Origin: Rhodospirillaceae bacterium
GTDB lineage: Bacteria > Pseudomonadota > Alphaproteobacteria > Rhodospirillales > Rhodospirillaceae
Length of the DNA: 64,000 bases
Reading direction: 5' to 3'
NCBI GenBank assembly: GCA_033764265.1
Contig: JANRJB010000112.1
Location: forward strand, 764 to 64,763
The position numbers were made by a program, and so were the translations under genes. Positions 5,489-37,358 of this stretch are shown one piece after another. The notes beneath the pieces were generated by a model. It had not been told where the DNA came from. It saw only the letters and a program-made list of their open reading frames with translations, and did not search any database. How positions within the stretch are numbered: position 1 is the first letter of the stretch; each line of letters starts with the position of its first letter.

Positions 5489-5495
5489 CGCGCGC

Positions 5496-7111: not shown

Positions 7112-7136
7112 TACTGTGCTGAGGAGAACCGCGGCC

Positions 7137-7406: not shown

Positions 7407-7414
7407 GTGAGACT

Positions 7415-8667: not shown

Positions 8668-8677
8668 GATCTCTGCC

Positions 8678-9673: not shown

Positions 9674-9878
9674 GACACCCCAATCCGCTATTCGCACGCA
9701 CCTGTGCGGCCAGTGTCGGGGCTGCGTCCTCCGGGCGCAAGGCCCGCGGCCTTCCGCCAAGCGAACAGAAGTGCTTTTTCGGGACGCGGCCGGGGCGTCG
9801 GGCCAACCGCAGGCTTGACGACCGTACGGCTCCGCTGGCTCGATAGCGCGTCCGCACGCCGAGACCCGGAGGAACGAG

Positions 9879-10361: not shown

Positions 10362-10364
10362 GCC

Positions 10365-10919
10365 ATGAGCGAACAGGCATTGCCGCGGGCGGATTTTTCG
10401 TGGGGCCTGGCGTCGCTGAAGGCGCGGCCCGCGCGTTATGCCGGCGTGCTGTTCGTGATGCTGGTACGCTATTTCCTGGGCGTGTTCTACCTCAGCGCCG
10501 GCATCAACAAGCTGCGGAACCAATGGATGTGGACCGATCGGCTGAAGGTGGTGTTCGAGCAACGCCTGCAGGAGTTGATCGATACCGGCGCGCTGACTTA
10601 CGGCGAGTTCTACCTGAACTACATCGCCATTCCGTACCTGAAGTATTTCGCGATTCCGCTGCACATCCCGGTGGCGATCGTGGTCGGCGTCGGCGAACTG
10701 GCGGTGGCGGTCAGCCTGTTCCTGGGCCTGATGCCGCGCTGGGGCGGCGCGCTGGCCCTGTTCCTGATGTTCAACTTCGCGCTCGGCGGCTACTACGACG
10801 CCTCGCTGTTACCGCTCTGCGCGATGGCCGCGCTTCTGATTGTCACGCCCTCGGGCCATTGGTTCGGGCTCGACCGGCGTCTGCACGCGCGCAACCCCGC
10901 CTCGATCTGGTATCGGTGA
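10365..10919 (+). CDS. DoxX/DoxD-like integral membrane protein (tentative)
   Basis: Four hydrophobic segments. The FLGVFYLSAGINKL and ELAVAVSLFLGL pattern resembles the DoxX family. Confidence 0.55.
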   Translation: MSEQALPRADFSWGLASLKARPARYAGVLFVMLVRYFLGVFYLSAGINKLRNQWMWTDRLKVVFEQRLQELIDTGALTYGEFYLNYIAIPYLKYFAIPLHIPVAIVVGVGELAVAVSLFLGLMPRWGGALALFLMFNFALGGYYDASLLPLCAMAALLIVTPSGHWFGLDRRLHARNPASIWYR

Positions 10920-10925
10920 TCCGGG

Positions 10926-13243: not shown

Positions 13244-14979
13244 GCCGCCTCGCGGTCGTGGCGTTCGACCAGGGCGATGAACGCCTCGTTCAAAGTGGTT
13301 TGCTCGCCGCCGCCGGCGGCCTTGATCTCGTCGGGCGAGCCCGCGGCGATCAAGCGGCCGCGATAGATGATCACCATCCGGTCGCAGTATTCGGCCTCGT
13401 CCAGAAAATGGCTGGTGATCAGGATCGTGGTGCCGTCGTCGGCCAGCGCGTTCAGGCGCGTCCAAAACTCGCGCCGCGTTTCGGGATCGACGCCGGAGGT
13501 CGGCTCGTCCAGGAACAGGATCGACGGGCGGTGCAACAGCGCGCACGCCAGCGCCATGCGCTGCTTGATGCCGAGCGGCAATTGTCCGCACGGCTCGTCG
13601 AGATAGTCGCGCAGCTGGAATTCATCGGCCGCATCGGCGATGCGCGCGGCGAGCGCCTTGCCGGAAAGCCCATACACGCCGCCGGCGAACGTCATGTTCT
13701 GACGCATGCTGAGCAAGCCGTTGTAGGCGAACTTCTGCGCCATGTAGCCAATGTGCGCGCGGGCATCGGCGCGGGCGCGCCCCAGGTCGTAGCCCGCCAC
13801 CAGCGCAGTCCCGGCGGACGGCGGCAACAGGCCGCACAGCATCTTGAAGGTGGTGGATTTGCCGGCGCCGTTGGGGCCCAGCAGCCCGAAAATTTCGCCG
13901 CGATCCACTCGGAACGAGACGCGATCGACGGCGGTGAAGGGGCCGAAGCGCCGGGTCAGGTCGCGGGTTTCGATCGCCGCGCCGGCATCCTGCGGCACTT
14001 GGTGGTGCGACACGATCGCCACGCCGGCGGATCGGCTGGCAGCGGGCGCGCCGCGGCGCGCGCGCAAGGCGGCCAGGTAGGTGTCCTCGAACTGCGGTGA
14101 GGTCGGTTCGGGGCGCAGCGAACGCAACGGCGCGAACGCGGCCGCGCTGAAATCAGGCGGCCGGCCGGGGCCATCCATCACCACGCGCAGGTTGCGGCCC
14201 TGGATTTGCGCGTCGACCACGCCGGCGGCGGCCTGGGCGGCGCGCTGCAAGTCCCGCTTGGCCGCCACGGTGGAGGACCGGGGAATCACCGCCCGCCAGG
14301 CGCGGTCCGCCACCAGCCGATTCAAATGCGCGGGTGTGCCGCTGTCGAGCACCGCGCCGTCGTGCAACAGAATGACATGATCGCAGCGTTCGGCCTCGTC
14401 CAGGTAGGCGGTGCTCCACAACACGGCGATGCCGGTGCTTTGCAGCGTGCGCACCATCGCCCATAATTCGCGGCGCGACAGCGGATCGACGCCGACGCTG
14501 GGTTCGTCGAGCAGCAGAACATCCGGCGGCACCACCAGCGTGCAGGCCAGCCCCAGTTTCTGTTTCATGCCGCCCGACAGTTTGCCGGCCAGCCGGCCGG
14601 TGAAGGGGCCAAGTTCGGTGAAGCGGTGAAGTTCGGCGAAGCGCCGTTCGCGGTCGGCGCGGCCCAAGCCGTTCAAATCGGCGTACAGGTCCAAGTTCTC
14701 GCCTACCGTCAAATCTTCGTAGAGGCCGAACTTCTGAGGCATGTAAGCGATGCGCGGCGCGCGGGCATCATCGCCGGTAACCGTGATTCTGCCGGCGTCG
14801 GGGTCGAACAGTCCGGCCAGAAGTCGCACCAGTGTCGTCTTGCCCGCGCCGTCGGGCCCGACCAGGCCTGTGATCTGCCCTGGTGCGATCTCGCCCGACA
14901 CGCCCGACAAGGCCTCGACGCGCCGCGTTTCCGTCACGAACGCCTTGCTCAATTCGGCGAAGCGCAGGCCGGCGGACAT
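13240..14979 (-). CDS. ybhF: ABC transporter ATP-binding protein with two fused ATPase domains
   Basis: Two Walker A motifs (GPDGAGKTT, GPNGAGKST) and two signature motifs (LSGGMKQK, LPLGIKQR) in 579 aa. Confidence 0.9.
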   Translation of the reverse strand: MSAGLRFAELSKAFVTETRRVEALSGVSGEIAPGQITGLVGPDGAGKTTLVRLLAGLFDPDAGRITVTGDDARAPRIAYMPQKFGLYEDLTVGENLDLYADLNGLGRADRERRFAELHRFTELGPFTGRLAGKLSGGMKQKLGLACTLVVPPDVLLLDEPSVGVDPLSRRELWAMVRTLQSTGIAVLWSTAYLDEAERCDHVILLHDGAVLDSGTPAHLNRLVADRAWRAVIPRSSTVAAKRDLQRAAQAAAGVVDAQIQGRNLRVVMDGPGRPPDFSAAAFAPLRSLRPEPTSPQFEDTYLAALRARRGAPAASRSAGVAIVSHHQVPQDAGAAIETRDLTRRFGPFTAVDRVSFRVDRGEIFGLLGPNGAGKSTTFKMLCGLLPPSAGTALVAGYDLGRARADARAHIGYMAQKFAYNGLLSMRQNMTFAGGVYGLSGKALAARIADAADEFQLRDYLDEPCGQLPLGIKQRMALACALLHRPSILFLDEPTSGVDPETRREFWTRLNALADDGTTILITSHFLDEAEYCDRMVIIYRGRLIAAGSPDEIKAAGGGEQTTLNEAFIALVERHDREAA

Positions 14980-23085: not shown

Positions 23086-23898
23086 TCACGCGTCGAGATG
23101 GGAACGGATCTTGGCGTTGATGCGGGTAGCCGCCACGTCGAAGATGCCGAAGCCATGGTCGGGCCAGCGCTCGAACCGGCCGTTCTTCATCAGACCTTCG
23201 CAGCGCGGCGAAATCTCCCACAAATCGTCCTTGGGACCGATCGCCAGGATCGGCTGGGTCACCTGCGGCAGCTTTTTCTCGAAGCCGTAGCGCATGGCCG
23301 CGCGGCCGCCCCAGAACGCCTTGTCGCCGGCCTTCAGCTTGTCGACGAAGCCGCGCATGATCATCGGCAACGTCATGCCCGGCCCGGCCCAATGCATCGA
23401 GCGGTTCCATTCGCCGGTCACGAACGACGCGTCCTCGGTGAAGGGCAGGGGCCACGGCGTCTTGTTGAAGGCATCGATGAAAGCCTGGTCCACCAGCGGC
23501 ATGCCGATCAGCACCAGCCGGCGGACCTGGTGGGGCCGGGTCAGCGCCAGCTCGGTCGCGGTCAGCGCGCCGGTGTGATAGCCGAGCAGGTCGACGGGCA
23601 CGTGGCCGAGCTGATCGAGCAGGTCGCCCATTGCCGCCGCGTAGTCGGCGATGTCCGGCGGCGACGGCGGCGGGTCGGACTCGCCGAAGCCCGGCGTGTC
23701 GGGCGCGTAAACGAAGCGGTCGCGACCCAGGTCTTTCAGCACCTCGGTGAAAATGCGGCCCGACTGCGGGCTTTGGTGAAAGCACACCAGCGGCGTGTGG
23801 TGCGCCACGGTGCCCGGCGTCGGCCGCGCGCTACGCAGGTGCAGCTGGCCGAATCTGGCGTCGACGTAACTGCGGCGGATGGCCGCGGGTGCGGACAT
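23086..23898 (-). CDS. Alpha/beta-hydrolase-fold protein, non-canonical elbow G-Y-H-T-G (cytoplasmic paralogue)
   Basis: Start MSAPAAIRRSYVD (CAT 23896-23898), 2 nt after the upstream gene's stop. VCFHQSPQSG and LLGYHTGALTA are shared with 55041..55943 and 55946..56872. Confidence 0.75.
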   Translation of the reverse strand: MSAPAAIRRSYVDARFGQLHLRSARPTPGTVAHHTPLVCFHQSPQSGRIFTEVLKDLGRDRFVYAPDTPGFGESDPPPSPPDIADYAAAMGDLLDQLGHVPVDLLGYHTGALTATELALTRPHQVRRLVLIGMPLVDQAFIDAFNKTPWPLPFTEDASFVTGEWNRSMHWAGPGMTLPMIMRGFVDKLKAGDKAFWGGRAAMRYGFEKKLPQVTQPILAIGPKDDLWEISPRCEGLMKNGRFERWPDHGFGIFDVAATRINAKIRSHLDA

Positions 23899-23900
23899 GC

Positions 23901-24734
23901 TCACTTCACCGGCTTCTGGTACAGGTGGGTGAAGCGGTCGCTCTCGCCGATGGCGGCATACTTGGCGCGGTCGACGTCGCCTTCGCGGTAGCTGGGCGGC
24001 AGGGTCCACACGCCCTTGGGATAGTCCTTGGTGTCTTTTGGGTTGGCGTTGATTTCCGACGTCGCCACCAGCCTAAATCCGGCCTTCTCCGCCAAGGCGA
24101 TCGCGTAGTCTTCGCGCACATAGCCCGAAACGGCCTTCGGGTCCTGCGGCTGGTCGGCGCGGCCGCGATGCTCGACCACGCCGAGGTAGCCGCCCGGCTT
24201 CAATGCCGCGAAAAAGCTGGCGTACATCGCCTCGGCGTAGCCGCGGGTCATCCAGTTATGGATGTTGCGAAAGGTCAGCACCATGTCGAGCGTGCCGGGC
24301 GGCACCGGCGCGAGCTTCTCGGTCATCGGGAACAGGATGGCGGTTTCGACCTTGCCATAGTTGGTGGGGTCGGCGGCCAGCTTGGCGGCGAGCGCCTCGA
24401 CCATGCGCTTGGCCCCGGCCGTTGCGGCGGGATCGAAATCGCCGGCGATGTAGCGGCCGTGGTCCTTCAGCACCGGCGCGAGGATTTCGGTGTACCAGCC
24501 CGCTTCGGGCCACACCTCCATCACCGACATGGTGTCCTTCAGACCGAAGAATTTCAGGGTCTCAAGCGGATGGCGGTACGCATCGCGGGCTTTGTTCTCG
24601 GGGCTGCGATGGTCGCCGGCCAGCGCCTGCTTCAGATTGGCTTCCGTGCGTGCATCCGTTTCGGCCCAAGCAACCAGAGGCGTCGACATTGTGGCCGCAG
24701 CCAGCACGGCGGTGATGATTCTGACGAACGACAT
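23901..24734 (-). CDS. Class I SAM-methyltransferase-fold protein with Sec signal peptide (tandem copy 1)
   Basis: Start MSFVRIITAVLAAATMSTPLVAWAE (CAT 24732-24734). Motifs VMEVWPEAGWYTE, VLTFRNIHNW, LKPGGYLGVVEH; C-terminus AIGESDRFTHLYQKP. Confidence 0.8.
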   Translation of the reverse strand: MSFVRIITAVLAAATMSTPLVAWAETDARTEANLKQALAGDHRSPENKARDAYRHPLETLKFFGLKDTMSVMEVWPEAGWYTEILAPVLKDHGRYIAGDFDPAATAGAKRMVEALAAKLAADPTNYGKVETAILFPMTEKLAPVPPGTLDMVLTFRNIHNWMTRGYAEAMYASFFAALKPGGYLGVVEHRGRADQPQDPKAVSGYVREDYAIALAEKAGFRLVATSEINANPKDTKDYPKGVWTLPPSYREGDVDRAKYAAIGESDRFTHLYQKPVK

Positions 24735-24754
24735 GTCGAAACCCCGCAAGAGAA

Positions 24755-24784
24755 AACCGGCGACAGGGTGGCCCGTCGCCGGTT
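24755..24784 (-). terminator. Rho-independent terminator candidate after tandem copy 2
   Basis: 10-bp perfect stem AACCGGCGAC / GTCGCCGGTT. On the minus strand it is followed by TTCTCTT. Located 32 nt downstream of the 24816 stop. Confidence 0.5.
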
Positions 24785-24815
24785 TCAATTCAACTCTCAA
24801 CGCGAACGCGCTGCA

Positions 24816-25652
24816 TCAGTTCGCGGGCTTCTGATACAGGTGGGTGAAGCGGTCGCTTTCACCGATGGCCGCGTACTTTTCACGGTTGACGTCCTTCTCG
24901 CGGAAGTTCGGCGGCAGGGTCCACACGCCGCCCGGATAGTCCTTGGTGTCTTTCGGATTGGCGTTGATCTCGGATTTGGCGACCAGCTTGAAACCGGCCT
25001 TTTCGGCCAAAGCCTGGGCGTAGTCCTCGCGCACGTAGCCGCTCGCGGCCTTGGGATCCTGCTCCTTGTCGGTGTTGGCGCGATGCTCGACCACGCCCAA
25101 GTAGCCGCCCGGCTTCAGACTGTCGTAGAACACCTTGAACATTTGGTCTTGGGTGCCCTGCGCCATCCAGTTGTGGATGTTGCGGAAGGTCAGCACCATG
25201 TCGGCGGTGCCGGGGGCGATCGGAGTGAGCTTGCCGGTGCGCGCCGAAAGTTCGCCCACCACCGCGTTGCCATAGATCTCAGGTCGCTCGGCCAGCTTGG
25301 CCTTAAACCCATCGACCTGTTTCTTGGCGCCTTCCGAGGCGGCCGGATCCAGATGGCCGGCGACGTACTTGCCGTTCTGGTTGAGCAGCGGCGCCAGGAT
25401 TTCGGTGTACCAGCCGCCCGACGGGCCGATCTCCAGCACCGTCATGTCGTGGCGCACGCCGAAGAATTTCAAGGTCTCGAGCGGGTTGCGGTATTTGTCG
25501 CGGGCCTTGTTCTCGGGGCTACGATGGTCGCCGTCCAGGATGACCTTCAGCTTGGCTTCGGTGCCGGCATCCATCTCGGCCATGGCCGCCATCGGCCAAG
25601 CCACCAGGGCGGCCAGTGCGCAGGCTTTTACCGCCGTCAGTACGGTCGTCAT
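24816..25652 (-). CDS. Class I SAM-methyltransferase-fold protein with Sec signal peptide (tandem copy 2)
   Basis: MTTVLTAVKACALAALVAWPMAAMAE signal. Motifs VLEIGPSGGWYTE, VLTFRNIHNW, LKPGGYLGVVEH. Confidence 0.8.
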   Translation of the reverse strand: MTTVLTAVKACALAALVAWPMAAMAEMDAGTEAKLKVILDGDHRSPENKARDKYRNPLETLKFFGVRHDMTVLEIGPSGGWYTEILAPLLNQNGKYVAGHLDPAASEGAKKQVDGFKAKLAERPEIYGNAVVGELSARTGKLTPIAPGTADMVLTFRNIHNWMAQGTQDQMFKVFYDSLKPGGYLGVVEHRANTDKEQDPKAASGYVREDYAQALAEKAGFKLVAKSEINANPKDTKDYPGGVWTLPPNFREKDVNREKYAAIGESDRFTHLYQKPAN

Positions 25653-25730
25653 GTGTCAGTCTCCTTTGCATGGGTCAGTTGCGGGCCAACGACGGCGTCT
25701 TGCGTCGCCGGTCCGTCGTCGTCGCGTCGG

Positions 25731-26567
25731 TCAGTTGGCCGGCTTCTGATACAGGTGCGTGAAGCGGTCGCTCTCCCCGATGGCAGTGTATTTGGCCTTG
25801 TCGACCTCGCCCTCGCGGTATGTGGGCGGCAAGGTCCACACGCCCTTCGGATAGTCCTTGGTGTCCTTCGGATTGGCGTTGACCTCGGACTTGGCCACCA
25901 GTACGAAGCCGGCTTTCTTCGCCAGTTCCTCGGCGAAATCCTCGCGGACGTAGCCGTTCGCGGCCTTGGGGTCCTGCGGCTGGTCGGTCTTGGCGCGGTG
26001 CTCCACCACGCCCAGGTAACCGCCCGGCTTCAGGCTGTCGTAAAACACTTTGTACAAAGCGTCCTGGGTGTTTTGACTCATCCAGTTATGGATGTTGCGG
26101 AAAGTCAGCACCATGTCGACCGACCCCGGCGGCACCGGCTGCATCTTGTTGGTGCCGGGGAACAGCACGGCCACCTCGACCTTCGCGAGGTCGGGGTGCT
26201 TGCCCAGCATCTCCTTGTAGCCGGCGACGGCCTTTTTCATGAACTCGCTGGGCGCCTCGGGGTCCCAGTGGGCGGCGATGTACTTGCCCTTGTCCTTGAG
26301 CACCGGGGCCAGCACTTCAGTGTACCAGCCGCCGCTCGGCCAGATTTCCATGACCGCCATGGTGTCCTTCAGGCCGAAGAACTTCAGCGTTTCCATCGGA
26401 TGGCGGTGTGCGTCGCGGGCCTTGTTGGCCTCGGAGCGGATCGGGCTGGCAAGCGCAGCCTTCAGCTTGGCCTCGGTGCCGGCGTCCATCTCGGCCTTGG
26501 CCGGCATCGCAATCGCCATGGTGACCGCAAGGGCCCCGACGACGGTTCGTCCCAAACGCATGTGCAT
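25731..26567 (-). CDS. Class I SAM-methyltransferase-fold protein with Sec signal peptide (tandem copy 3)
   Basis: Start MHMRLGRTVVGALAVTMAIAMPAKAE (CAT 26565-26567) preceded by GGGAGG. Same motif set as copies 1 and 2. The rest of track ORF 25731..26861 is leader. Confidence 0.8.
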   Translation of the reverse strand: MHMRLGRTVVGALAVTMAIAMPAKAEMDAGTEAKLKAALASPIRSEANKARDAHRHPMETLKFFGLKDTMAVMEIWPSGGWYTEVLAPVLKDKGKYIAAHWDPEAPSEFMKKAVAGYKEMLGKHPDLAKVEVAVLFPGTNKMQPVPPGSVDMVLTFRNIHNWMSQNTQDALYKVFYDSLKPGGYLGVVEHRAKTDQPQDPKAANGYVREDFAEELAKKAGFVLVAKSEVNANPKDTKDYPKGVWTLPPTYREGEVDKAKYTAIGESDRFTHLYQKPAN

Positions 26568-26881
26568 GGTGGTGTGTCCTCCCTGAGTGGCGACGCGCGC
26601 CCGAACTTCCGGCGGCTTCGCGTCGCGGCATGGTGGCGCCCCGTCGCGCCGCGCCGAGTCGTACAACGAAATAGGGACTTCACAAAGCGGAACAACCCGA
26701 AACACCCGCAATCTCACGGGTTCGTCATTTTGGCTTGAGTGGGCGGATTGGCCCGCAAAGTCGCGCTGTAGCCATGTGGCCGGCGCATGGCCGGCCGCTT
26801 GATCTTGTCCCCCGCCGCCATACATGGCGCACACTGCACGTTCGATGCTCGAACGCCCCACACCCGTTGAAGGGACCCGCC

Positions 26882-27799: not shown

Positions 27800-29044
27800 G
27801 TGGTGCACCCGCCGATGGCCGATATTCTGTTCTGGCCGCCGTTTCCGACCCGCGACCGGCTGTTCGACCAGTTGTTCCGCAGCGTCTGGCATTTCCTGCC
27901 GGCACTGGCGAAGTTCGACCGGCTGGTGTTCCCGTACGCCGGCGACGACGTGCGACTGCTGGATGCCGAACAAAACCTCGGCATGGCGAAGGCGTACCTG
28001 GGCCGCGATTTCGACCCGGACATCGCCGACTACGCCGCGCGGTTCGCCGGCAAGGTCGCGATTTCGGCGGACCCCAACGGCGACCCGGCGATCTATGCCG
28101 GACCTTACGCCGGTCTGGTGGTCTGGTACGCCGCCGATGCCACCTTGAACGCCGCGGCGCGCGCCATCGCCGAGCGGGCCGGCTGCGAGATCGTCTGGGC
28201 CGATCCCGAACTGGTGCAGCAGGAGACGCTGTCGCTGATCCGCTTCGTGTTCACGTTGTTCCCGAAGCCGGAGATCGACGCGCTTCTGTCCAACTCGGTG
28301 CATCTGTTTTTCCTGCACCTGAAACGCTGGCATGGCCGACCCATCAGCGCCTTCGGCAACGGGCCCAGCCTGCAGCGGGTCGTGGAAAACCGCATCGACC
28401 CGGGCCCGACGCTGCGCCTGATCTGCAATTCCACAGTTGGCGATACGGCAGCGCTGGCGCACCTGAAGCCCGAGATCATGTTCTGCGGCGATCCGGTGCA
28501 GCATTGCGGCGCCTCGCGATATGCCGGGCAGTTCCGCGCCGACCTGGCCGCGGCGCTGGACGCCGATCCCAACCGCGTACTCGTCACCCAGCTCGGGTTC
28601 ATTCCGTACCTCAAAGCCGCGTTGCCCGCCGACACGCACACCCGCCTGGTTGGTGTCGGCAATGACCGGCGCAGCGATTTTAATGTCGACCTGACGGCGT
28701 CATTTTTCACCGCCGCCACCGCCAACATCTTCACCATGCTGGTGCTGCCGGTGGCGTTCACGATCTCCAGGCAGGTCGACATCTACGGCTGCGACGGCCA
28801 GCCCTTCGCCGCCGCCACCAAGCCCTGGGGCCACGCCGGTGAGACCGACTACATGAGCCGCATGGCCGTCACCCACCGCGTCCATCCCGGATTCTGGCGG
28901 CGCAACTACGCCGAGGAGCTGACCAGCTACTACGACGACATGGAGGACCTGCTCGCAACCGCCGAGAAGGCGGGCGCGACGGTGCGCAACCGGACACCGT
29001 CATACGTGCCGGCGCTGGCCAAGCGATTTGTGGCGCCGGATTAG
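27800..29044 (+). CDS. Hypothetical protein with GT42-sialyltransferase/DUF115-like motifs in the C-terminal half
   Basis: ORF 27800..29044 (GTG start; ATG alternative at 27815). AFGNGPSLQRV...LRLICNST...VDIYGCDG resembles the GNGPSL / xCN / IYLxGxD pattern of CstII-type and MAF/DUF115 proteins. Confidence 0.6.
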   Translation: MVHPPMADILFWPPFPTRDRLFDQLFRSVWHFLPALAKFDRLVFPYAGDDVRLLDAEQNLGMAKAYLGRDFDPDIADYAARFAGKVAISADPNGDPAIYAGPYAGLVVWYAADATLNAAARAIAERAGCEIVWADPELVQQETLSLIRFVFTLFPKPEIDALLSNSVHLFFLHLKRWHGRPISAFGNGPSLQRVVENRIDPGPTLRLICNSTVGDTAALAHLKPEIMFCGDPVQHCGASRYAGQFRADLAAALDADPNRVLVTQLGFIPYLKAALPADTHTRLVGVGNDRRSDFNVDLTASFFTAATANIFTMLVLPVAFTISRQVDIYGCDGQPFAAATKPWGHAGETDYMSRMAVTHRVHPGFWRRNYAEELTSYYDDMEDLLATAEKAGATVRNRTPSYVPALAKRFVAPD

Positions 29045-31749
29045 CCCGCCAAGCTTTTGCTCGCCAGTTCGAACACGTCGCGCGATAGGCCGGGGTGCTG
29101 GGCAATGCGCTCCAGCGCGCCCTTCATCTTGGCCTGGCGGGGGGCATCGAAGCGCCGCCAGCGCCCCAGCGGCGCCACCAGCCGCGCCGCGGTCTGCGGG
29201 TTGAAAGCGTCGATGGCCACGATCTGCTCGGACAGGAAGTCGTAACCCGAGCCATCCGCGGCGTGGAAGTGCACCGGGTTGCGCAGCGAAAAGGTTCCGA
29301 TCAGCGCGCGGATGCGGTTCGGGTTCTTGGCGTCGTAGGTGCGGTGGCCCATCAGCGCGCGCACCGCGGCCAGGGTGCCGGGCAGAGTGCTGGCCGCCTG
29401 CACCGATAGCCATTTGTCGAGCACGACCGCGTCACCGTCGTAGCGCCGGGCGAATGTCGCCAGCGCCTCGGTGCGTTCCAGCCCGGCGCTGTCGGCCAGG
29501 ATCGACAGCGCGGCCATGCGGTCGGTCATGTTGTCGGCGCCGTCGAACTGCGCTTTGACCGGTGCGAGCGTTTCGGGCGTTTCGACCTGGGCCAGGTAAT
29601 CGAGCGCGGCATTCTTGAGGGCGCGGCGGCCGGCGCCTTCGGCATCGGGCGCGAACGGGGCGTTGGCGCGCCGCGAGTCATACAACCGCTTCAATGCGTC
29701 AAAATGTTTCTCGGCGATGGCGCGCTTGACCGCCTCGCGCGCGGCATGCAGGCGTAGCGGGTCCTCCACGGTCATGCGGTTGGCGAGGTCGTCGAAGCCG
29801 GGCAGGGTCATCAACAGGCCGCGGGTGGCGTCGTTCAGGCGGTCGTCGCCGATCACCGCGCCCACGGCGTTCAGAAATTCCGCCTCGATCACGAACGAGC
29901 GGCCGATCTGGAGCGCCGCCACACCGCGCAAGATGACGGCCGCAGCGTAATCCTGCTTGGCCTGCCAGCGATTGAAACTGTCGAAATCGTGCGCCATCAG
30001 GAACGCGCGGTCGGCGTCGCTCATGGCGATATTTACATTCACCGGCGCGGAAAAGCCGCGATTGAGCGACGGCAGCGGCGCGGCAGGCACGTTCTCGAAT
30101 ACGAATGTCTCCGTGGCCGCGCGCAGTTCGAGCACCAAGGTCGTCGCAGCCCCCCTCACCCCAACCCTCTCCCGCTCGGGGAGAGGGAGCCGAGCGGAGC
30201 GAGGGGGTGAGGGGGCGTTTTTCAAGTCAAGAGCAATGTCTCGCCCATCCGGACCCACCAGCCCGACCGCGAAGGGAATATGCATCGGCAGCTTGGTGGG
30301 CTGGCCGGGCGTCGGTGCGAGCGATTGTTTCAGGGTCAGCGCATAGGTTTGCGCCGCGGCGTCGTAGGCGCCCGACGCTTCGATCACCGGCGTGCCGGCC
30401 TGGCGATACCAAAGCTTGAACTGGTCGAGGTCGCGGCCCGAGGCGTCCTCCATGGCGGCGACGAAGTCGTCGCACGTCACCGCCTGGCCGTCGTGGCGGG
30501 CAAAGTAGAGGTCCATGCCTTTGCGGAAATTCTCCGGCCCCAGCAGCGTGTGTTGCATGCGGATGACTTCCGCGCCCTTCTCGTAAACCGTCGCGGTGTA
30601 GAAGTTGTTGATCTCGATATAGCTGTCGGGCCGCACCGGATGGGCCAGCGGGCTCGCGTCCTCGGTGAACTGGCGCGCACGCAGGGTATCGGCGTCCTCG
30701 ATGCGCTTGACCGCGGCGTCGCGCATGTCCTCGGAGAACTGCTGGTCGCGGAACACGGTCAGGCCTTCCTTCAGGCTCAACTGGAACCAGTCGCGGCAGG
30801 TGACGCGGTCGCCGGTCCAGTTGTGGAAGTACTCGTGCGCGACAACGGCCTCGATGAATTCGTAGTCGCCGTCGGTGGCGGTGTCCGGATCGGCCAGGAT
30901 GTACTTGTCGTTGAAGATGTTGAGGCCCTTGTTCTCCATCGCGCCCATGTTGAAGTCGCTGACGGCGACGATGTTGAACACATCGAGGTCGTATTCGCGG
31001 CCGTACCTGTCTTCGTCCCACTTCATCGCGCGTTTCAGGGCGTCCATGGCGTAAAGGGCGCGCGGCTCCTTGCCGTGCTCGACATAGATGCGCAGCCTGA
31101 CGTTTCGGCCGCTGCGGGTCGTGAAACGGTCCTCGATGTGGCCCAGGTCGCCGGCTACCAGCGCGAACAGATAGCAGGGCTTGGGGAACGGATCGTGCCA
31201 GACGGCGGAGTGCCGCCCGTTGGGCAGATCGCCGTGCTCGATCGGGTTGCCATTGGATAGCAGCACTGGGCACTGGGCCTTGTCGGCGCGCACAGTCACG
31301 CGGAAGCTGCTCATCACGTCGGGGCGGTCCTGGAAATAAGTGATGCGGCGGAAGCCTTCGGCCTCGCACTGGGTGGTGAACTTGCCGCGCGACAGGTACA
31401 GGCCTTCCAGGGCCGTGTTGGACTGCGGGTCGACCTCGGTCTCGATGCGCAAGGCGAAGCGCGCCGGCGGGGCGGGCAGGGTGAGCGTGGCGTCGGTGAG
31501 TACGTAGTCGCGGCCCTCGGACAGCGGCCGGCCGTCGAGTGCGGCCGACACCAGCCTCATCTTCTCGCCGTCCAGTACAAGCGGCTGCACGCCTTTGGCG
31601 CGGTCGTGGTCGGCCACGTACACGGTCTCGGCGACGACCCGCGTCGCGGTCGGGTGCAGGTCGAACGCTAGAGTGATTTCGGGCGCGCGGTAGGGCGGCG
31701 GCGCATAGTCGGCCAGGCGGATGGTGCGGGGCGGGGTTTCGGTTTTCAC
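29041..31749 (-). CDS. pepN: Aminopeptidase N (M1 family)
   Basis: HEYFHNWTGDRVT with downstream LSLKEGLTVF is the gluzincin HExxH-E signature. Start chosen at GTG (CAC 31747-31749) because VKTETPPRTIRLADYAPPPY then aligns with the E. coli PepN N-terminus. The track start at 31809 is a TTG. Confidence 0.9.
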   Translation of the reverse strand: MKTETPPRTIRLADYAPPPYRAPEITLAFDLHPTATRVVAETVYVADHDRAKGVQPLVLDGEKMRLVSAALDGRPLSEGRDYVLTDATLTLPAPPARFALRIETEVDPQSNTALEGLYLSRGKFTTQCEAEGFRRITYFQDRPDVMSSFRVTVRADKAQCPVLLSNGNPIEHGDLPNGRHSAVWHDPFPKPCYLFALVAGDLGHIEDRFTTRSGRNVRLRIYVEHGKEPRALYAMDALKRAMKWDEDRYGREYDLDVFNIVAVSDFNMGAMENKGLNIFNDKYILADPDTATDGDYEFIEAVVAHEYFHNWTGDRVTCRDWFQLSLKEGLTVFRDQQFSEDMRDAAVKRIEDADTLRARQFTEDASPLAHPVRPDSYIEINNFYTATVYEKGAEVIRMQHTLLGPENFRKGMDLYFARHDGQAVTCDDFVAAMEDASGRDLDQFKLWYRQAGTPVIEASGAYDAAAQTYALTLKQSLAPTPGQPTKLPMHIPFAVGLVGPDGRDIALDLKNAPSPPRSARLPLPERERVGVRGAATTLVLELRAATETFVFENVPAAPLPSLNRGFSAPVNVNIAMSDADRAFLMAHDFDSFNRWQAKQDYAAAVILRGVAALQIGRSFVIEAEFLNAVGAVIGDDRLNDATRGLLMTLPGFDDLANRMTVEDPLRLHAAREAVKRAIAEKHFDALKRLYDSRRANAPFAPDAEGAGRRALKNAALDYLAQVETPETLAPVKAQFDGADNMTDRMAALSILADSAGLERTEALATFARRYDGDAVVLDKWLSVQAASTLPGTLAAVRALMGHRTYDAKNPNRIRALIGTFSLRNPVHFHAADGSGYDFLSEQIVAIDAFNPQTAARLVAPLGRWRRFDAPRQAKMKGALERIAQHPGLSRDVFELASKSLAG
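30151..30215. repeat. GC-rich nested palindromic (REP-like) element inside the pepN coding sequence
   Basis: Outer arms CCCCCTCACCCC / GGGGTGAGGGGG; inner hairpin CCCTCTCCC-gctcg-GGGAGAGGG. On the pepN strand it translates as PSPPRSARLPLPERERVGVRG. Confidence 0.75.
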
Positions 31750-31899
31750 GGGCAGGGCTCGGGCGGGGGTGGTTTCAGCCCAACCTAGCGCCCGGTGATC
31801 GGCGTGCAAGCCTTTGGGTGCCGCTCACAATTTCTTAATCCGGCGCCCCTAGCCTAGCCTGGACATTCGTGTCTCAGCGATTTGCAACGGATAAGCGTC

Positions 31900-33198
31900 A
31901 TGCGCGTCGTCGCGTTCGTGCCGGCCAAGGGCGAAAGCAGCCGGATCGCCAACAAGAACACCGTTGTGCTCGACGGCGAGCACCTGTTCAAGCGCAAGCT
32001 GCGCCAGCTGCTGGAATGCCCTGAGATCGACGAGGTCTACCTCGACACCGAAAGCGAGCGGATGATCGAGCTGGCCGCCGACCTGCCGGTCAAAGTGCTG
32101 AAGCGCGACCCCAAGCTGGCGTCCAACCGCACCGACGGCCACGAGCTGTTCGCCAACCAGGCCCGCCAGGTCAAGGCCGACATCTACATCCAAAGCCTGT
32201 GTACCAGCCCGTTCATCACCGCCGACACAATTAGCCGCGCGATGAAAGCGTTGATGAAGAAGCCGGGCGCGGACTCGCTGGTCGCGGTGCAGCGGAGAAA
32301 GCTCTACACCTGGAGCAGGGGCCGGCCCGACTACGGCCAGGGCCGCATTCCCAATTCGGTCGACCTGCCGCACACCATCATCGAGTCCATGGGGCTTTAC
32401 ATGGTGCGCCGGCAAAAAGGCGAAGGCGCGCCGACGCACCGGTTCGGGGCCAAGCCGATCCTGTTCGAGATCACCGACGAGGAAGCCGTCGACGTCAACT
32501 GGCCCGAGGACCTGGCGCTGGCCGAGCGCATCTGCGCCGGCCACCGCGCCGTGCACAACGCCGCGCTCGACGCCATCCGCCCGCACCTGTGCGCTTCTCT
32601 GCTCGCCGACATCTGCAAGGAACGCGGGCTAAAAGCCGTGCTGCCGCCAGGGTTCGTGCGGGTCAGCGGGCGCAGCGTGCTGGGCGTGGCCAAGACGCTG
32701 GAGCTGCGCCGGCTGAAGAAGGGCGACGACTGGAAGGGCATCTACACCGCGCTGGGCAGCTACAACTTCATCCGCCCGGGCGACGTGATCGTGGTTCAGA
32801 ACCACGTCAAGGACAAAGCCTACTTCGGCGATCTGAACGCCAACATCGCCGTGCGTTCGGGCGCGGTCGGCGCGGTGGTCGATAGTTACACCCGCGATTC
32901 CGCCGAGCTGAACGGGCTGGAGTTTTCTGTCTTCGCCCGCGGCATCAACTGCGACGACATTAAGTACGAAGGAACCGTTCACGCCATGAACAAGCCGGTC
33001 ACCATTGGCGAAGTGGTGGTCAACAACGGCGACTACATCTACGCCGACGACGACGGCGTGCTGGCGATCCCCAAGGCGCTGTGGCCGTCGATCCGTGACG
33101 AGGCTCTGGCCACCCTCAAGAAGGAATTCGACATCCGCTACGCCATCATGCGCGGCGAGGACGTAGCGAAAGTCCTCAATCTCCATGGGGCGTTTTAG
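31900..33198 (+). CDS. Fusion protein: N-terminal acylneuraminate/CMP-sugar cytidylyltransferase domain + C-terminal RraA / class II (HMG/CHA-type) aldolase domain
   Basis: MRVVAFVPAKGESSRIANKN (CTP_transf_3 P-loop-like motif) at the N-terminus. PGDVIVVQNH...GDLNANIAVRSGAVGAVVDSYTRDSAEL...VFARG...DYIYADDDGVLAIP is the RraA-family pattern. Single uninterrupted ORF. Confidence 0.8.
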   Translation: MRVVAFVPAKGESSRIANKNTVVLDGEHLFKRKLRQLLECPEIDEVYLDTESERMIELAADLPVKVLKRDPKLASNRTDGHELFANQARQVKADIYIQSLCTSPFITADTISRAMKALMKKPGADSLVAVQRRKLYTWSRGRPDYGQGRIPNSVDLPHTIIESMGLYMVRRQKGEGAPTHRFGAKPILFEITDEEAVDVNWPEDLALAERICAGHRAVHNAALDAIRPHLCASLLADICKERGLKAVLPPGFVRVSGRSVLGVAKTLELRRLKKGDDWKGIYTALGSYNFIRPGDVIVVQNHVKDKAYFGDLNANIAVRSGAVGAVVDSYTRDSAELNGLEFSVFARGINCDDIKYEGTVHAMNKPVTIGEVVVNNGDYIYADDDGVLAIPKALWPSIRDEALATLKKEFDIRYAIMRGEDVAKVLNLHGAF

Positions 33199-33320: not shown

Positions 33321-34730
33321 ATGGCGTTCGACGAGATGTACAGCGCCGACGGCGGCATCCGCCCGCCGTACCAGGGCATCGCCCGTTGGCTGGCCGGCAC
33401 CTCGCCCGACACGCTGCAGGCGCGCACCACGGAAGCAGAGCTGCTCTATCGCCGCGGCGGGATCACCTTCGCAGTGTACGGCGACGCCGAGGGCGAGGAA
33501 CGCATCATTCCGCACGACATCGTCCCCCGCGTGCTGGCGCGTGCGGAGTGGGACCTGCTGGCCCGGGGGCTGGAACAGCGCGTGCGCACGCTGAACCGTT
33601 ACCTGAACGACATTTACGGCCCCGGCGAGTGCCTGAAGGCGGGCGTCGTGCCCGAGGAACTGGTCTGGCAGAATCCGGCCTTTCGACCCGAAATGGTCGG
33701 CGTGCCGGTGCCGCACGGCATCTACGTGCACATCGCCGGCATCGACGTGGTGCGCATCGACCCCGAGACCTTCTACGTGCTCGAGGACAACGCGCGCACG
33801 CCGTCGGGCGTATCGTACATGTTGCACAGCCGCGAGGTGTCGATGCGGCTGGTGCCCGAACTGGTGGCCGATCATCGCATCGCCCCGATCGAGAACTATC
33901 CCGAACAGCTGCTGGCGGCTTTGAAGTCGGTCGCCCCGCGCCGCGCCGCACAGGACCCCACCGTGGTGCTGCTGACGCCCGGCCAGTTCAACTCGGCCTA
34001 CTACGAGCATTCGTTCCTGGCCGACAAGATGGGCGTGGAGCTGGTCGAGGGCCGCGATCTGTTCGTGCGCGACGCCAACGTCTACATGCGCACCACGCTG
34101 GGGCCCAAGCGCGTTGACGTGATCTACCGGCGAATCGACGACGACTTCATCGACCCGCTCACCTTCCGCCCGGATTCCATCCTCGGGCTGCCGGGCCTGT
34201 TCGCCTGCGCGGCGGCCGGCAACGTCGCACTCGCCAACGCCGTCGGCACCGGCGCGGCCGACGACAAGGTGATCTACTCCTACATCCCCGAACTGATGAA
34301 GTTCTATTTCGGCGAGACGCCGATCCTGCACAACGTGCCGACCTGGCGCTGCCGGTACGCCGACGACCTGGCCTACGTGCTCGACCACCTGCACAAGCTG
34401 GTGGTGAAGGAGGTTCACGGTTCCGGCGGCTACGGAATGTTGGTCGGCCCACACGCCTCGTCGCACCAGATCGAGGAATTCCGCGCCCGGCTGATCGCCC
34501 ACCCGGACAATTACATTGCCCAGCCCACGCTATCGTTGTCGACCTGCCCGACGTTCGTCGACAGCGGCGTGGCGCCGCGCCACGTCGACCTGCGACCGTT
34601 CGTGCTGTCGGGCGCCGACGGCGTGCGGGTGGTGCCCGGCGGCCTGACGCGGGTGGCCCTGCGCGAAGGCTCGCTGGTGGTGAATTCGAGCCAGGGCGGC
34701 GGCACCAAAGATACTTGGGTGATCGAGTGA
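33321..34730 (+). CDS. Circularly permuted ATP-grasp type 2 protein (DUF404/DUF407)
   Basis: 469 aa. PSGVSYMLHSR, VLLTPG..NSAYYEHSFLA and VVKEVHGSGGYGM blocks are typical of the family. First gene of the Anbu operon. Confidence 0.8.
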   Translation: MAFDEMYSADGGIRPPYQGIARWLAGTSPDTLQARTTEAELLYRRGGITFAVYGDAEGEERIIPHDIVPRVLARAEWDLLARGLEQRVRTLNRYLNDIYGPGECLKAGVVPEELVWQNPAFRPEMVGVPVPHGIYVHIAGIDVVRIDPETFYVLEDNARTPSGVSYMLHSREVSMRLVPELVADHRIAPIENYPEQLLAALKSVAPRRAAQDPTVVLLTPGQFNSAYYEHSFLADKMGVELVEGRDLFVRDANVYMRTTLGPKRVDVIYRRIDDDFIDPLTFRPDSILGLPGLFACAAAGNVALANAVGTGAADDKVIYSYIPELMKFYFGETPILHNVPTWRCRYADDLAYVLDHLHKLVVKEVHGSGGYGMLVGPHASSHQIEEFRARLIAHPDNYIAQPTLSLSTCPTFVDSGVAPRHVDLRPFVLSGADGVRVVPGGLTRVALREGSLVVNSSQGGGTKDTWVIE

Positions 34731-34749
34731 CGGATGATCGCGTGACGAG

Positions 34750-35691
34750 ATGCTGAGCCGCACCGCCGACAGCCTGTACTGGCTTGCGCGTTACATCGAG
34801 CGCGCCGACTACCTCGCCCGCATCCTCGACGCGGCGACGCGGCTGGCGGCGCTGCCGGGCGCCAGCGCACACGGCGTCAACGAGTGGGAGAGCGCGCTGG
34901 CCTCGGCCGGCTGCCTGGCGGCGTTCCGCAGCCGCTACGCCGAGGCCAACGCCGCCACTGCCACCGCGTTTGTGGCCTTCGCAGAGGACAACCCATCGTC
35001 GATCCGCCAGTGCCTCGAAACCGCGCGTTTTAATGCCCGCGCCGTGCGCACCGCCATTACCTCGCAGATGTGGGAGACCATCAACGGCGCGTGGCTCGAC
35101 CTGCATGCCACCGACGTCGGCGCGCTTGCGCCCAGCGACCACACCCAGTTTCTCGACTGGGTCAAGGATGTCTCGCTGCGCTTTGACGGTTCGGCCTATC
35201 GCACCATGTTGCGCGAGGAGAGCTATTGGTTCTACCGCCTGGGGACCTTCATCGAGCGCGCCGACAACACCGCGCGCATCCTCGACGTGAAGTACCACGT
35301 GCTGTTGCCGCAAACCTCGACCGTCGGCGGCGGGCTGGACTATTCCCAGTGGGCGGCGATCCTGCGCTCGGTCAACGCGCTGACCGCCTATCACTGGGTC
35401 TATCGCGACAGTCTGAAGCCGTGGCTGATCGCCGAGTTTCTGCTGCTGAAGCCCGAGATGCCGCGCTCGCTGCGCTCGTGCTATCTCAATCTGGTCGAGG
35501 CGCTCGACCTGTTGGCCCAGCACTCGGGCCGGCAGGGCCCGGCGCAGCGCCGCGCCCGCGCCATCGCGCTCAAGCTGGAGCAGGGGCGCATCGACGATAT
35601 CTTCGCCAGCGGACTGCACGAGTTCGTCCAGACCTTTCTGTCCGACAACAACAGCCTTGGCGCGGCGATCTCCGAGCAATACCTGATCTGA
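34750..35691 (+). CDS. Alpha-E domain protein (DUF403)
   Basis: MLSRTADSLYWLARYIERADYLARILD is the hallmark N-terminus of alpha-E proteins; the repeat FYRLGTFIERADNTARILD occurs mid-protein. Confidence 0.85.
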   Translation: MLSRTADSLYWLARYIERADYLARILDAATRLAALPGASAHGVNEWESALASAGCLAAFRSRYAEANAATATAFVAFAEDNPSSIRQCLETARFNARAVRTAITSQMWETINGAWLDLHATDVGALAPSDHTQFLDWVKDVSLRFDGSAYRTMLREESYWFYRLGTFIERADNTARILDVKYHVLLPQTSTVGGGLDYSQWAAILRSVNALTAYHWVYRDSLKPWLIAEFLLLKPEMPRSLRSCYLNLVEALDLLAQHSGRQGPAQRRARAIALKLEQGRIDDIFASGLHEFVQTFLSDNNSLGAAISEQYLI

Positions 35692-35695
35692 TTCA

Positions 35696-36526
35696 ATGCG
35701 CATCCACATCCGTCACGCCACCACCTACACTTACGACCAGCCGGCCAAGGCGGTGATCCAGCTGTTGCGCCTCACCCCGCGCGCCTGCGAGGGCCAGTCG
35801 GTCCGGCGCTGGCGCATCGATCTCGACGTCGACGGTTCGCTGCGGCAGTCCGAGGACGCCTTCGGCAACGTCACGCACATGTTGTCGCTGGCTGGGCCGA
35901 TCGCCCGGCTGACGGTGGCGGCCGACGGCGAAGTGGAGACGATGGAGACCGACGGTGTCGTACGCGGGGCGGTCGAACGCTTCCCGACCGGGCTGTACTT
36001 GCGTGAGACCGCACTGACGCGGCCGTCGGCGGAGCTGGCCGCGTTCGCGCGCGACGCGACGGCCGGGCGCGGCGACCCCTTGACCGTGTTGCATGCGCTG
36101 ATGCTGGCCGTGCACCGCGCCATCGCCTTCGATACGCGCCCGACCCAAGCAACCACCACGGCCGCCGAGGCCTTCAGGATCGGGTCGGGCGTGTGTCAGG
36201 ACCTGACGCACGTCTTCATCGCCGCGGCGCGCGTGCTCGGCATTCCTGCGCGCTATGTCGGCGGCTACCTGTGGCGCGCCGACGGCGCGCTGCGCCAGGT
36301 GCAGGATGCCGGCCATGCCTGGGCCGAGGCCCATACGCCCAACCTGGGCTGGGTCGGCTTCGATCCGGCCAACGCCATCTGCTCGACCGCCGCGCACGTG
36401 CGCGTTGCGGTCGGGCTGGATTACCTGGGGGCCGCACCGGTCCGCGGCTCGCGCACCGGCGGCCCGGACGAGCGCCTGGACGTGGCGCTGTCGGTGACCC
36501 AGGCCGCCGCCGCGCGTCAGGACTGA
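35696..36526 (+). CDS. Transglutaminase-family protein (Bact_transglu_N + transglutaminase core)
   Basis: GSGVCQDLTHVFIAAARVLGIPARYVGGY (catalytic Cys), HAWAEA (His) and GFDPAN (Asp). Confidence 0.85.
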   Translation: MRIHIRHATTYTYDQPAKAVIQLLRLTPRACEGQSVRRWRIDLDVDGSLRQSEDAFGNVTHMLSLAGPIARLTVAADGEVETMETDGVVRGAVERFPTGLYLRETALTRPSAELAAFARDATAGRGDPLTVLHALMLAVHRAIAFDTRPTQATTTAAEAFRIGSGVCQDLTHVFIAAARVLGIPARYVGGYLWRADGALRQVQDAGHAWAEAHTPNLGWVGFDPANAICSTAAHVRVAVGLDYLGAAPVRGSRTGGPDERLDVALSVTQAAAARQD

Positions 36527-36611
36527 GAATGACCGCCGATGCGCCGGCGCGTGAATTGTGGGTTGCGCGCGCCTCGTCTATAAGCCTGCGGCGGACGCGC
36601 GGAGGGGCCCC

Positions 36612-37358
36612 ATGACCTATTGCGTCGGATTGTTGCTCAAGGACGGCCTGGTGATGATCGCCGACACGCGCACCAACGCGGGCGTCGACAACATCGCTGT
36701 GTTTCGCAAGCTGCACTTGTTCGAAACACCCGGCCAACGCACGTTAGCCCTGTGCAGCGCAGGCAACTTGTCGCACGCGCAGACCGTCGTCAGCCTGTTG
36801 AACGAGGGCATGGAGAATCCCGCCACCGGCAAGGCGCAAACCCTGGCGGGCGCGGCGACCATGCTGGAGGCCGCGCAACTGGTCGGCCGCGCCGTGCGGC
36901 ACGTGTACCAGATCGACGGCGAAGCGCTGGAAAAGCAGAACGGCCGATTCGACGTGTCGTTTCTTCTCGGCGGCCAGATCAAGGACCGTCGCCTTCGCCT
37001 GTTCCTGATTTATGCCGCCGGCAACTTCATCGAGGCCAGCCTGGAAACCCCGTTCCTCCAGATCGGCGAACACAAGTACGGCAAGCCGATCCTTGATCGC
37101 GCCGTCACCTACGACATGGACCTGTACGACGCCCTGAAAATCGGCTTGATCTCGGTGGACTCCACGCTGCGCTCCAACCTCGCGGTCGGGTTGCCGCTCG
37201 ACATCGCGGTTATCCGCCGCGACGCCTTGAAGGCCGAGCTGACCTATCGCGTCGAGGCCGAAGACGCGTATTTCGCCGACCTGCGCCGGCGCTGGTCCGA
37301 GGCATTGCGCGCGACCCACCAAGCGATTCCGCGCCCCCCTTACAAGCCGGCTGGCTGA
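36612..37358 (+). CDS. Anbu (ancestral beta-subunit) proteasome-type peptidase
   Basis: In-frame ATG 36612 gives MTYCVGLLLKDGLVMIADTRTNAG, with Thr2 as the Ntn nucleophile. About 248 aa. Sits in the canonical operon position after the transglutaminase. Confidence 0.85.
   Translation: MTYCVGLLLKDGLVMIADTRTNAGVDNIAVFRKLHLFETPGQRTLALCSAGNLSHAQTVVSLLNEGMENPATGKAQTLAGAATMLEAAQLVGRAVRHVYQIDGEALEKQNGRFDVSFLLGGQIKDRRLRLFLIYAAGNFIEASLETPFLQIGEHKYGKPILDRAVTYDMDLYDALKIGLISVDSTLRSNLAVGLPLDIAVIRRDALKAELTYRVEAEDAYFADLRRRWSEALRATHQAIPRPPYKPAG

Follow-up and report, generated by a model that had tools for sequence, protein, structure and literature searches.

Introduction

[quoted passage not shown] The CMP-ulosonic acid synthetases (CMP, cytidine monophosphate) have a CTP-binding loop of the form P-A-R/K-x-x-S-x-R/G-x-x-x-K-N/P, followed by D-T-D/E, Q-x-x-x-T/D-S/E-P and acidic Mg2+ motifs, and an accessory domain at the C terminus is found in some NeuA proteins too. 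Here we describe a gene that joins a NeuA-type synthetase to an RraA-like, aldolase-type domain. It lies in a 64,000-nucleotide stretch of a Rhodospirillaceae bacterium genome (assembly GCA_033764265.1, contig JANRJB010000112.1), which we refer to as the window, and we call the gene and its protein the fusion.

One of the closest described systems is viral. Genes crov265-267 of Cafeteria roenbergensis virus (CroV) form a putative Kdo cassette, in which crov266 has CMP-N-acetylneuraminic acid (NeuAc)-synthetase-like and 'demethylmenaquinone methyltransferase' domains and was tentatively assigned to CMP-Kdo formation (PMC9614988). In our comparison, crov266 is homologous to the fusion over residues 1-432 (33% identity, E 9e-83), and its genomic context, with KdsA-type and KpsF-type genes on its flanks, matches that published cassette. 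We take the 'demethylmenaquinone methyltransferase' label of its C-terminal domain to mean RraA-like. The two-domain architecture has thus been noted before, in CroV, and the window gene typifies a family that is already on record. The two genes nevertheless differ: crov266 is viral, very AT-rich and highly diverged, whereas the window gene has no adjacent Kdo genes.

For the N-terminal half (N-domain), two kinds of synthetase serve as comparators. KpsU and KdsB (EC 2.7.7.38) have a nucleotidyltransferase superfamily and P-loop logic in common with the fusion, and there is a likeness of setting, because relatives of the fusion lie beside KpsF, KpsC/KpsS-like glycosyltransferases and ABC exporters, in addition to a housekeeping KdsB. 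However, KpsU and KdsB have no aldolase-type domain, and the window protein fails the KdsB equivalog models and has a fold nearer to NeuA and CMP-Kdn synthetases (Kdn, 2-keto-3-deoxynononic acid). By sequence and by structure, the N-domain is nearest to the CMP-Kdn and CMP-Neu5Ac synthetases (PpNeuA, 9t4z; 6ifd, 1eyr and 1qwj), but the fusion differs from them in its Kdo-type context, in having no NeuB-type synthase among the annotated neighbours examined and in the first basic P-loop residue, which is Lys rather than Arg.

For the C-terminal half (C-domain), the comparators are HMG/CHA aldolase (the aldolase of 4-hydroxy-4-methyl-2-oxoglutarate and 4-carboxy-4-hydroxy-2-oxoadipate) and FlDet. 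In HMG/CHA aldolase, Arg123 is the essential enolate stabiliser, Asp124 and Glu199 are metal ligands, and Gly101 lines the pyruvate pocket (PMC5065237). The aromatic-catabolism context of LigK-type enzymes is absent at the fusion, and the distal substrate pocket differs, with His75 replaced by an invariant Y282 and Asn71 by D277. FlDet of Flavobacterium sp. UMI-01 is an RraA-family 2-keto-3-deoxy-hexarate dehydratase/decarboxylase and so a precedent for non-aldolase chemistry on a 2-keto-3-deoxy sugar acid (PMC8563752). We liken it to the C-domain by its description; it differs in being catabolic and stand-alone.

Domains and active sites of the fusion

The initial annotation, made from the sequence alone, had read this gene as one uninterrupted ORF (open reading frame) with two domains (Table 1), and this is borne out. 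The frame runs from an ATG through 432 codons to a stop without a break, the matching frame of the opposite strand contains a stop, and both Pfam domains score above their cut-offs: CTP_transf_3 (PF02348) on residues 5-122 with 55.7 bits (cut-off 22.6) and RraA-like (PF03737) on residues 236-388 with 97.5 bits (cut-off 24.5). The sequence motifs that had been quoted for both halves are present in the protein.

All NCBIfam matches are sub-threshold. For the N-half, PseF and KdsB match about equally weakly, and the KdsB equivalog and subfamily cut-offs are all missed (best 41.6 bits versus 193; NF003948, 18.7 versus 281). For the C-half, the sub-threshold matches are of HMG/CHA-aldolase types (PRK06201, ligK), but the LigK/PcmE (CHA aldolase) equivalogs are missed (TIGR02798, 72.8 bits versus 304.5; NF006731, 78.4 versus 179), as is the equivalog for RraA, the RNase E regulator (NF006875, 43.3 bits versus 136). 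The C-domain has the long form of the fold, approximately 210 amino acids (aa) with a C-terminal helix, whereas the short RraA form has approximately 160.

An AlphaFold model of the fusion, built on 38 homologues, has a mean pLDDT (per-residue confidence) of 91.8 and a pTM (predicted TM-score) of 0.84. It shows two tightly packed domains (residues ~1-215 and ~222-432); a long helix connects them, and there is no loose linker. The top Foldseek match of the N-domain is the CMP-Kdn synthetase 9t4z (target-normalised TM-score, TMt, 0.83; root-mean-square deviation, rmsd, 2.6), followed by the CMP-NeuAc synthetases 6ifd, 1eyr and 1qwj (TMt 0.76-0.80), while KdsB and KpsU are further away (TMt 0.63-0.68, rmsd ~7). 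The N-domain has the fold seen in solved members of the synthetase superfamily, with their dimerisation hairpin. Judged by sequence and predicted fold, the N-half is NeuA-type rather than KdsB-type. The C-domain matches 3k4i (TMt 0.83) and 3noj (TMt 0.71).

The N-domain motifs are the P-loop PAKGxSxRIxNKN, with an R-to-K variant at residue 10, then LDTES, QxLCTSPF, IPNS and D198/D204. In one homologue alignment, P8, A9, K10, S13, R15, K19, N20, D49, T50, Q98, T102, P104, D198 and D204 are invariant, and in a wider set they are mostly at least 90% conserved. Conservation of at least 90% holds down to 29% identity for P8, K10, S13, R15, K19, N20, D49, T102-P104-F105, P151-N152-S153, D198 and D204.

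In the C-domain, R332-D333 align exactly with Arg123-Asp124 of the Pseudomonas putida HMG/CHA aldolase (3NOJ) and G310-D311 with Gly101-Asp102, while the C-terminal helix contributes E409, whose counterpart is Glu199 in an ungapped alignment and Glu201 in a hidden Markov model (HMM) alignment. The RraA half therefore keeps its metal- and pyruvate-binding residues: G310, R332 and E409 do not vary among representatives at 29-53% identity, and D333 is kept in at least 90% of them. The same representatives also conserve other residues of the pocket (D353, D383 and Y282). Both catalytic sites look intact in sequence, and because their residues are conserved across the family, both halves appear to be under selection as catalysts.

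An obligately fused family

A word-indexed search with the fusion protein returned 962 matches. Almost all of the best 120 are two-domain proteins at 55-97% identity; the majority are full-length, and a few are cut off on short contigs. These two-domain homologues come from many independent assemblies, complete chromosomes included. An exhaustive search of 1.84 billion cluster representatives gave ~45 full-length fusion clusters (at 50% identity), reaching down to 29% identity. Split versions encoded by adjacent genes were sought by searching with the C-domain alone and were not found: the close 'stand-alone' relatives are truncated genes on 1-3 kb contigs, one more is a decayed remnant among transposase fragments, and genuine stand-alone RraA proteins have an identity to the C-domain of 41% or below. 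Every candidate for a separate half turned out to be a fragment at a contig end or the transposon-ridden remnant, and no genuine split version came out of this search.

It is therefore practically out of the question that an assembly or frameshift artefact has joined two genes. Hundreds of full-length homologues drawn from separate assemblies, complete chromosomes among them, 40 syntenic loci, 38 viral contigs and the lack of split versions all contradict it. The fusion is a genuine, conserved and obligately fused family, rare but widely scattered. Its distribution is patchy: it occurs in 12 of 61 related genomes, 2 of 400 genomes at class level and 1 of 400 at phylum level.

The 38 viral contigs with a full-length fusion are CroV and 37 uncultured contigs from IMG/VR (L074-L108, L110 and L111), which have a GC content of 0.34-0.44, are up to 256 kb long and carry the fusion at 45-50% identity. 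One of them, L093, looks like a T4-like phage because it carries gp32 and a UvsX/RecA-like gene. Around its fusion is a glycan island (2650-14324) with genes for a GDP-mannose dehydratase, a methyltransferase-like protein, a sulfotransferase and a GT8 glycosyltransferase. The phage-type fusion has no homologue in the GenBank phage collection, and a literature search on RraA together with cytidylyltransferase yielded nothing useful.

Gene neighbourhoods outside the window clade

The window gene belongs to a clade of close relatives, described below, and our context sample outside this clade consisted of 12 intact loci. In 11 of them, a gene like Capsule_synth (KpsC/KpsS, the beta-Kdo transferases of GT107 type) lies within 10 kb of the fusion, which supports an association of the conserved fusion with glycan genes. 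In seven loci (L044, L045, L046, L054, L055, L069 and G497/L073), this Kps-like glycosyltransferase gene abuts or overlaps the stop codon of the fusion. The seven abutting genes form one connected family with weak, consistent matches to Capsule_synth and to the NCBIfam BFO_1060 glycosyltransferase model, and BLAST links the family to a bona fide Capsule_synth protein. Scores for PF05159 are 23.7 bits (L044_516) and 24.5 bits (L045_471) against a cut-off of 20, with two others at 19.1 and 16.6, and Capsule_synth is annotated in L052 and L069. The abutting gene of G497, which was left out of our custom Kps-like HMM, matches that HMM at E 6.5e-15.

Three loci (L053, L070 and L071, whose type of fusion is 56-58% identical to the window's) have an operon that encodes a ~390-aa protein, an SIS+CBS protein, the fusion and a DAHP_synth_1 protein. 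The SIS+CBS gene is a KpsF/GutQ-family arabinose-5-phosphate isomerase and the DAHP_synth_1 gene is KdsA, at equivalog level (~430 bits versus 242, NCBIfam). By hhalign, the ~390-aa protein is distantly related to the Kps-like family (E 4e-5 over 270 columns). No KdsC-type phosphatase is present in these KpsF-fusion-KdsA operons. In two of the loci, an inositol-monophosphatase-family (HisN/CysQ-like) gene lies convergently right after KdsA (L053:12141-12938 and L070:6762-7649, both on the minus strand), and this enzyme could be the Kdo-8-phosphate phosphatase there.

L052 has Capsule_synth and KpsF genes within 10 kb of the fusion, and L055, one of the seven loci above, has Poly_export as well as ABC-2/ABC capsule export genes. 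G091 is the one locus of the 12 without a Kps-like gene; its abutting protein (554 aa) has a weak GT29 match (E 0.028) and no profile link to the Kps-like family or to unk414, the candidate partner discussed below. No NeuB-type gene was seen beside the fusion among the Pfam-annotated genes within ~10 kb in loci outside the clade; the 40 clade loci were screened for KdsA, KpsF and Kps-like genes only. An ATP-grasp gene (ATPgrasp_Ter/ATP-grasp_3 type) recurs in L045, L052 and L068, often with methyltransferases and DegT aminotransferases, which hints at an amide-linked or methylated sugar-acid decoration.

In a maximum-likelihood tree, the window clade (support 100/99) is sister to L052, and both lie inside a 100/100 group that holds Kps-associated and KdsA-associated fusions.

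Relation to the classical Kdo pathway

The initial annotation had suggested a compact, NeuB-independent route to a CMP-ulosonic acid, and this is the part of it that our results contradict as a general explanation. Its other suggestion, a coupling of activation to turnover, finds neither support nor contradiction here. The fusion shares an operon with KdsA in L053, L070, L071 and CroV, and KdsA is encoded by 58 of the 61 relatives, including all 11 other fusion carriers. Although KdsA (PF00793) was not found in the window genome (466 contigs, rated 98% complete), its presence in so many relatives leads us to read this as an assembly gap, and we reject it as support for a KdsA-independent route. 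For the same reason, absence calls in this assembly are unreliable. Canonical KdsB was found in 9 of 9 fusion genomes tested (the window genome's copy scores 334 bits versus a cut-off of 281), so we also reject the idea that the fusion replaces KdsB.

Since KdsA is operonic with the fusion in relatives and kept in carriers, the ulosonic acid evidently comes from the classical synthase, which depends on phosphoenolpyruvate (PEP), and the aldolase-fold domain must therefore do something else or something additional. The co-presence of KdsA and KdsB, together with the patchy distribution of the fusion, indicates an accessory enzyme beside the PEP-dependent Kdo pathway.

The window locus and a candidate transferase

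The window clade was sampled as 40 loci from freshwater and marine 'Rhodospirillaceae'-type metagenome-assembled genomes, with 73-90% identity to the fusion. These loci have a common upstream order: methyltransferase-like genes (-), unk414 (+), pepN (-) and fusion (+). Downstream, gene order varies. Our custom HMMs for KdsA, KpsF and Kps-like proteins found no match across the whole window or in any of the 40 loci. This agrees with the initial report that no neuB or kdsA gene is nearby, and the window genome's only NeuB is on another contig.

The conserved upstream neighbour unk414 had been described as a GT42/DUF115-like candidate transferase. The ORF is real and conserved, but the family assignment did not hold, as it has no Pfam family and only a weak resemblance to sialyltransferase folds. 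It belongs to a clade-restricted orphan family of 131 homologues, all labelled hypothetical and none with a Pfam match. Among the 61 relatives, it is found in 12 of 12 fusion genomes versus 2 of 49 others, and one of these two carries just the C-terminal domain, as a distant homologue. The structural model (pLDDT 89) has no strong neighbour in the PDB; its highest-probability Foldseek matches (0.8-0.9) are the sialyltransferases ST6GALNAC2 and ST8SiaIII (GT29) and CstII (GT42) (6apj, 5bo8 and 1ro8), all of them weak (E 0.01-0.06, TM-score 0.2-0.45). Searching unk414 against PF06002, PF01973 and PF00777 (GT42, the MptE-like/Maf family DUF115, and GT29) gave no match at E<=5. PF01973 was matched in 3 of 34 homologues (best E 0.051), and a six-frame search of the window genome with it gave nothing at E<=10.

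The motifs GNGPSL, CN, GCDG and THRxH are invariant in unk414 and resemble those of CstII, which we treat as a lead and not as a test. A literature search on the GNGPS motif yielded nothing useful. The Pfam-less genes downstream of the fusion in distant loci are not unk414, since comparisons by BLASTP and hhalign gave no similarity. In phage locus L093, the fusion abuts unknown proteins that are related neither to unk414 nor to the Kps-like family. The context of a distant unk414 homologue in genome G004 was uninformative. The Kdo transferase families GT99, GT107 and GT140 have negligible mutual sequence similarity (PMC12887879), so a further orphan family would be unsurprising. By a narrow balance, unk414 is probably a CMP-sugar-acid transferase.

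Table 1. Fusion gene, its domains and upstream neighbours, in window coordinates
Feature	Position	Strand	Basis and remarks
Fusion gene, 432 aa: NeuA-type cytidylyltransferase + long-form RraA/HMG-CHA-aldolase-type domain	31900..33198	+	Pfam, NCBIfam, AlphaFold, Foldseek
N-domain, residues 1-215, CMP-ulosonic-acid synthetase fold	31900..32544	+	Pfam PF02348, Foldseek, motif conservation
C-domain, residues 222-432, RraA-like fold of class II pyruvate-aldolase (HMG/CHA) type	32563..33195	+	Pfam PF03737, PDB alignments 3noj and 3k4i, Foldseek
unk414, orphan 414-aa protein, candidate CMP-sugar-acid transferase	27800..29044	+	Homologues, synteny, fold search; likely true start near M6
pepN (aminopeptidase N)	29041..31809	-	Peptidase_M1, DUF3458_C; between unk414 and fusion
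Three tandem S-adenosylmethionine (SAM)-methyltransferase-like paralogues	23901..26861 (23901-24800, 24816-25652, 25731-26861)	-	Methyltransf_12 E 3e-6; CheR SAM-binding E 2.6e-4

Of the other upstream genes, pepN is transcribed divergently from the fusion and is not considered part of the module. The methyltransferase-like paralogues are kept beside unk414 in most of the window clade, and methyltransferases recur in distant fusion loci and as crov267 of CroV; a link with the fusion module is no more than a possibility. A 949-aa ORF over these genes (23889-26738, plus strand) was rejected as a partner, being an antisense artefact whose translation has three internal repeats and is rich in R, G, H and V.

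After a 123-bp gap, the fusion is followed on the same strand by an operon (33321-37358) encoding a circularly permuted ATP-grasp protein, Alpha-E, a transglutaminase and the proteasome-like Anbu. We reject this operon as a partner and consider it unlinked to the fusion, because the downstream side is not conserved among clade loci. There is no compositional island (GC 0.61-0.70 throughout the window).

On other contigs (L066:69-4221 and L060), the window genome has a separate cluster of the legionaminic/pseudaminic acid (Leg/Pse) type, with a PseF-like cytidylyltransferase, a CBS-NTP_transferase, a Polysacc_synt_2 dehydratase and NeuB. Counting KdsB, the PseF-like gene and the fusion, the window cell has at least three genes of CMP-ulosonate synthetase type.

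Proposed function and alternatives

We propose that the fusion is a dedicated accessory CMP-ulosonic acid synthetase for a non-essential surface glycan, capsule-like or other; its patchy distribution fits such a gene. The N-domain would use Kdo, or a Kdo-derived 3-deoxy-2-ulosonic acid, and CTP to form a CMP-sugar donor, working in parallel to the housekeeping KdsB by analogy with KpsU beside KdsB in Escherichia coli. Open-chain Kdo is a 4-hydroxy-2-keto acid, and the C-domain would act on the same sugar, at its 2-keto-3-deoxy end in the open-chain form; D333 and E409 would hold a divalent metal, and R332 would stabilise the 2-keto-acid enolate. Candidate reactions are retro-aldol/aldol chemistry (C4 epimerisation, or cleavage and salvage of the Kdo-aldolase type) and an enolate-driven dehydration. 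Because the C-domain may epimerise, cleave or dehydrate the sugar, the activated product may be Kdo in modified form. Most members of the family would then pass the donor on to the KpsC/KpsS-like beta-Kdo transferase encoded next door, while in the window clade, where this partner is absent, unk414 would be the best candidate transferase. Taken as a whole (an accessory Kdo-type CMP synthetase, a C-domain with enolate chemistry and a dedicated transferase), we consider this model somewhat better than evenly supported.

Several observations weigh against it. The Kps-like label depends on custom HMMs and on weak Pfam matches (E 4e-5 to 6e-3, around the 20-bit cut-off), the window's own locus is without Kdo or Kps genes, the window genome has no Capsule_synth matches at all, and the phage and G091 loci are without nearby Kdo genes. 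The N-domain is closer to the NeuA/CMP-Kdn type and fails the KdsB cut-offs, so a nine-carbon substrate is possible. As for the partner, unk414 matches no glycosyltransferase family by sequence, and its co-occurrence with the fusion is confounded by physical linkage and shared ancestry. Finally, with KdsA present, a cell would have no evident reason to fuse an aldolase-type domain to the activating enzyme.

Two alternatives concern where the sugar comes from and which sugar it is. The C-domain might condense pyruvate with an aldose (e.g., D-arabinose to give Kdo, EC 4.1.2.23) for activation by the N-domain, in a two-step route independent of KdsA and NeuB. The intact catalytic residues of the C-domain would allow this, the window locus and many others (Kps-type, phage and G091) have no kdsA or neuB nearby, and other NeuA proteins, with their phosphatase-like and esterase domains, set a precedent for fusing consecutive pathway steps. 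We nevertheless find it unlikely, since fusion genomes keep KdsA, which is operonic with the fusion in the four cases named above, and the aldol equilibrium of free sugars favours cleavage. A low probability also attaches to the idea that the substrate in the window clade is a nonulosonic acid with nine carbons (of Kdn, Leg or Pse type), which a sialyltransferase-like unk414 would transfer. It would account for the N-domain's closest neighbours, which are 9t4z and the CMP-NeuAc synthetases and not KdsB, for the GT29 and GT42 sialyltransferases being the best fold probabilities of unk414, and for the NeuB and Leg-type cluster of the window genome. However, a PseF-like cytidylyltransferase already belongs to that cluster, the Kdo/Kps-associated fusions among which the window clade is nested have 55-62% identity and the same conserved pocket residues, and NeuB-type genes are missing near the fusion in the loci examined outside the clade.

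The remaining alternative is that the RraA-like domain is non-catalytic and serves as an oligomerisation platform or as a ligand-sensing or regulatory module, in a role like that of E. coli RraA, or of the domain at the C terminus of the animal CMP-sialic acid synthetase, acting through protein binding. Proteins with the RraA fold assemble into trimers or hexamers, and for some of them binding to other proteins is the mode of action (2yjv, 5x15 and 1q5x are among the Foldseek matches); the tight inter-domain packing of the model would suit such a role. But the equivalents of Gly101, Arg123, Asp124 and Glu199 are invariant or nearly so at 29% identity, as are D353, D383 and Y282, and residues so well conserved make a purely structural or regulatory domain less likely. 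The domain also has the long HMG/CHA-aldolase form and misses the RraA equivalog, so we regard a non-catalytic role as quite improbable.

Significance

If the fusion is indeed an accessory Kdo-type synthetase, its family adds a predicted catalytic module to the activating step of a pathway, and it does so in several bacterial phyla, in uncultured T4-like marine phages and in the giant virus CroV. The reaction of the C-domain could reveal a new activated sugar acid or give a gene to the orphan Kdo aldolase, and it would also explain what the viral glycan islands build. The particular interest of the window gene is that an orphan candidate transferase stands in place of the usual Kps-like partner.

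A more specific version of this idea is possible, if doubtful: the RraA-like domain would be the orphan Kdo aldolase (EC 4.1.2.23), or a retro-aldol C4-epimerase or dehydratase that converts Kdo to another 3-deoxy-2-ulosonic acid immediately ahead of CMP activation, with an undescribed donor and with unk414 as a new glycosyltransferase family. Were the C-domain to modify ulosonic acids in this way, the family would make a CMP-sugar donor that has not been described, and unk414 would found a sequence-orphan family of glycosyltransferases.

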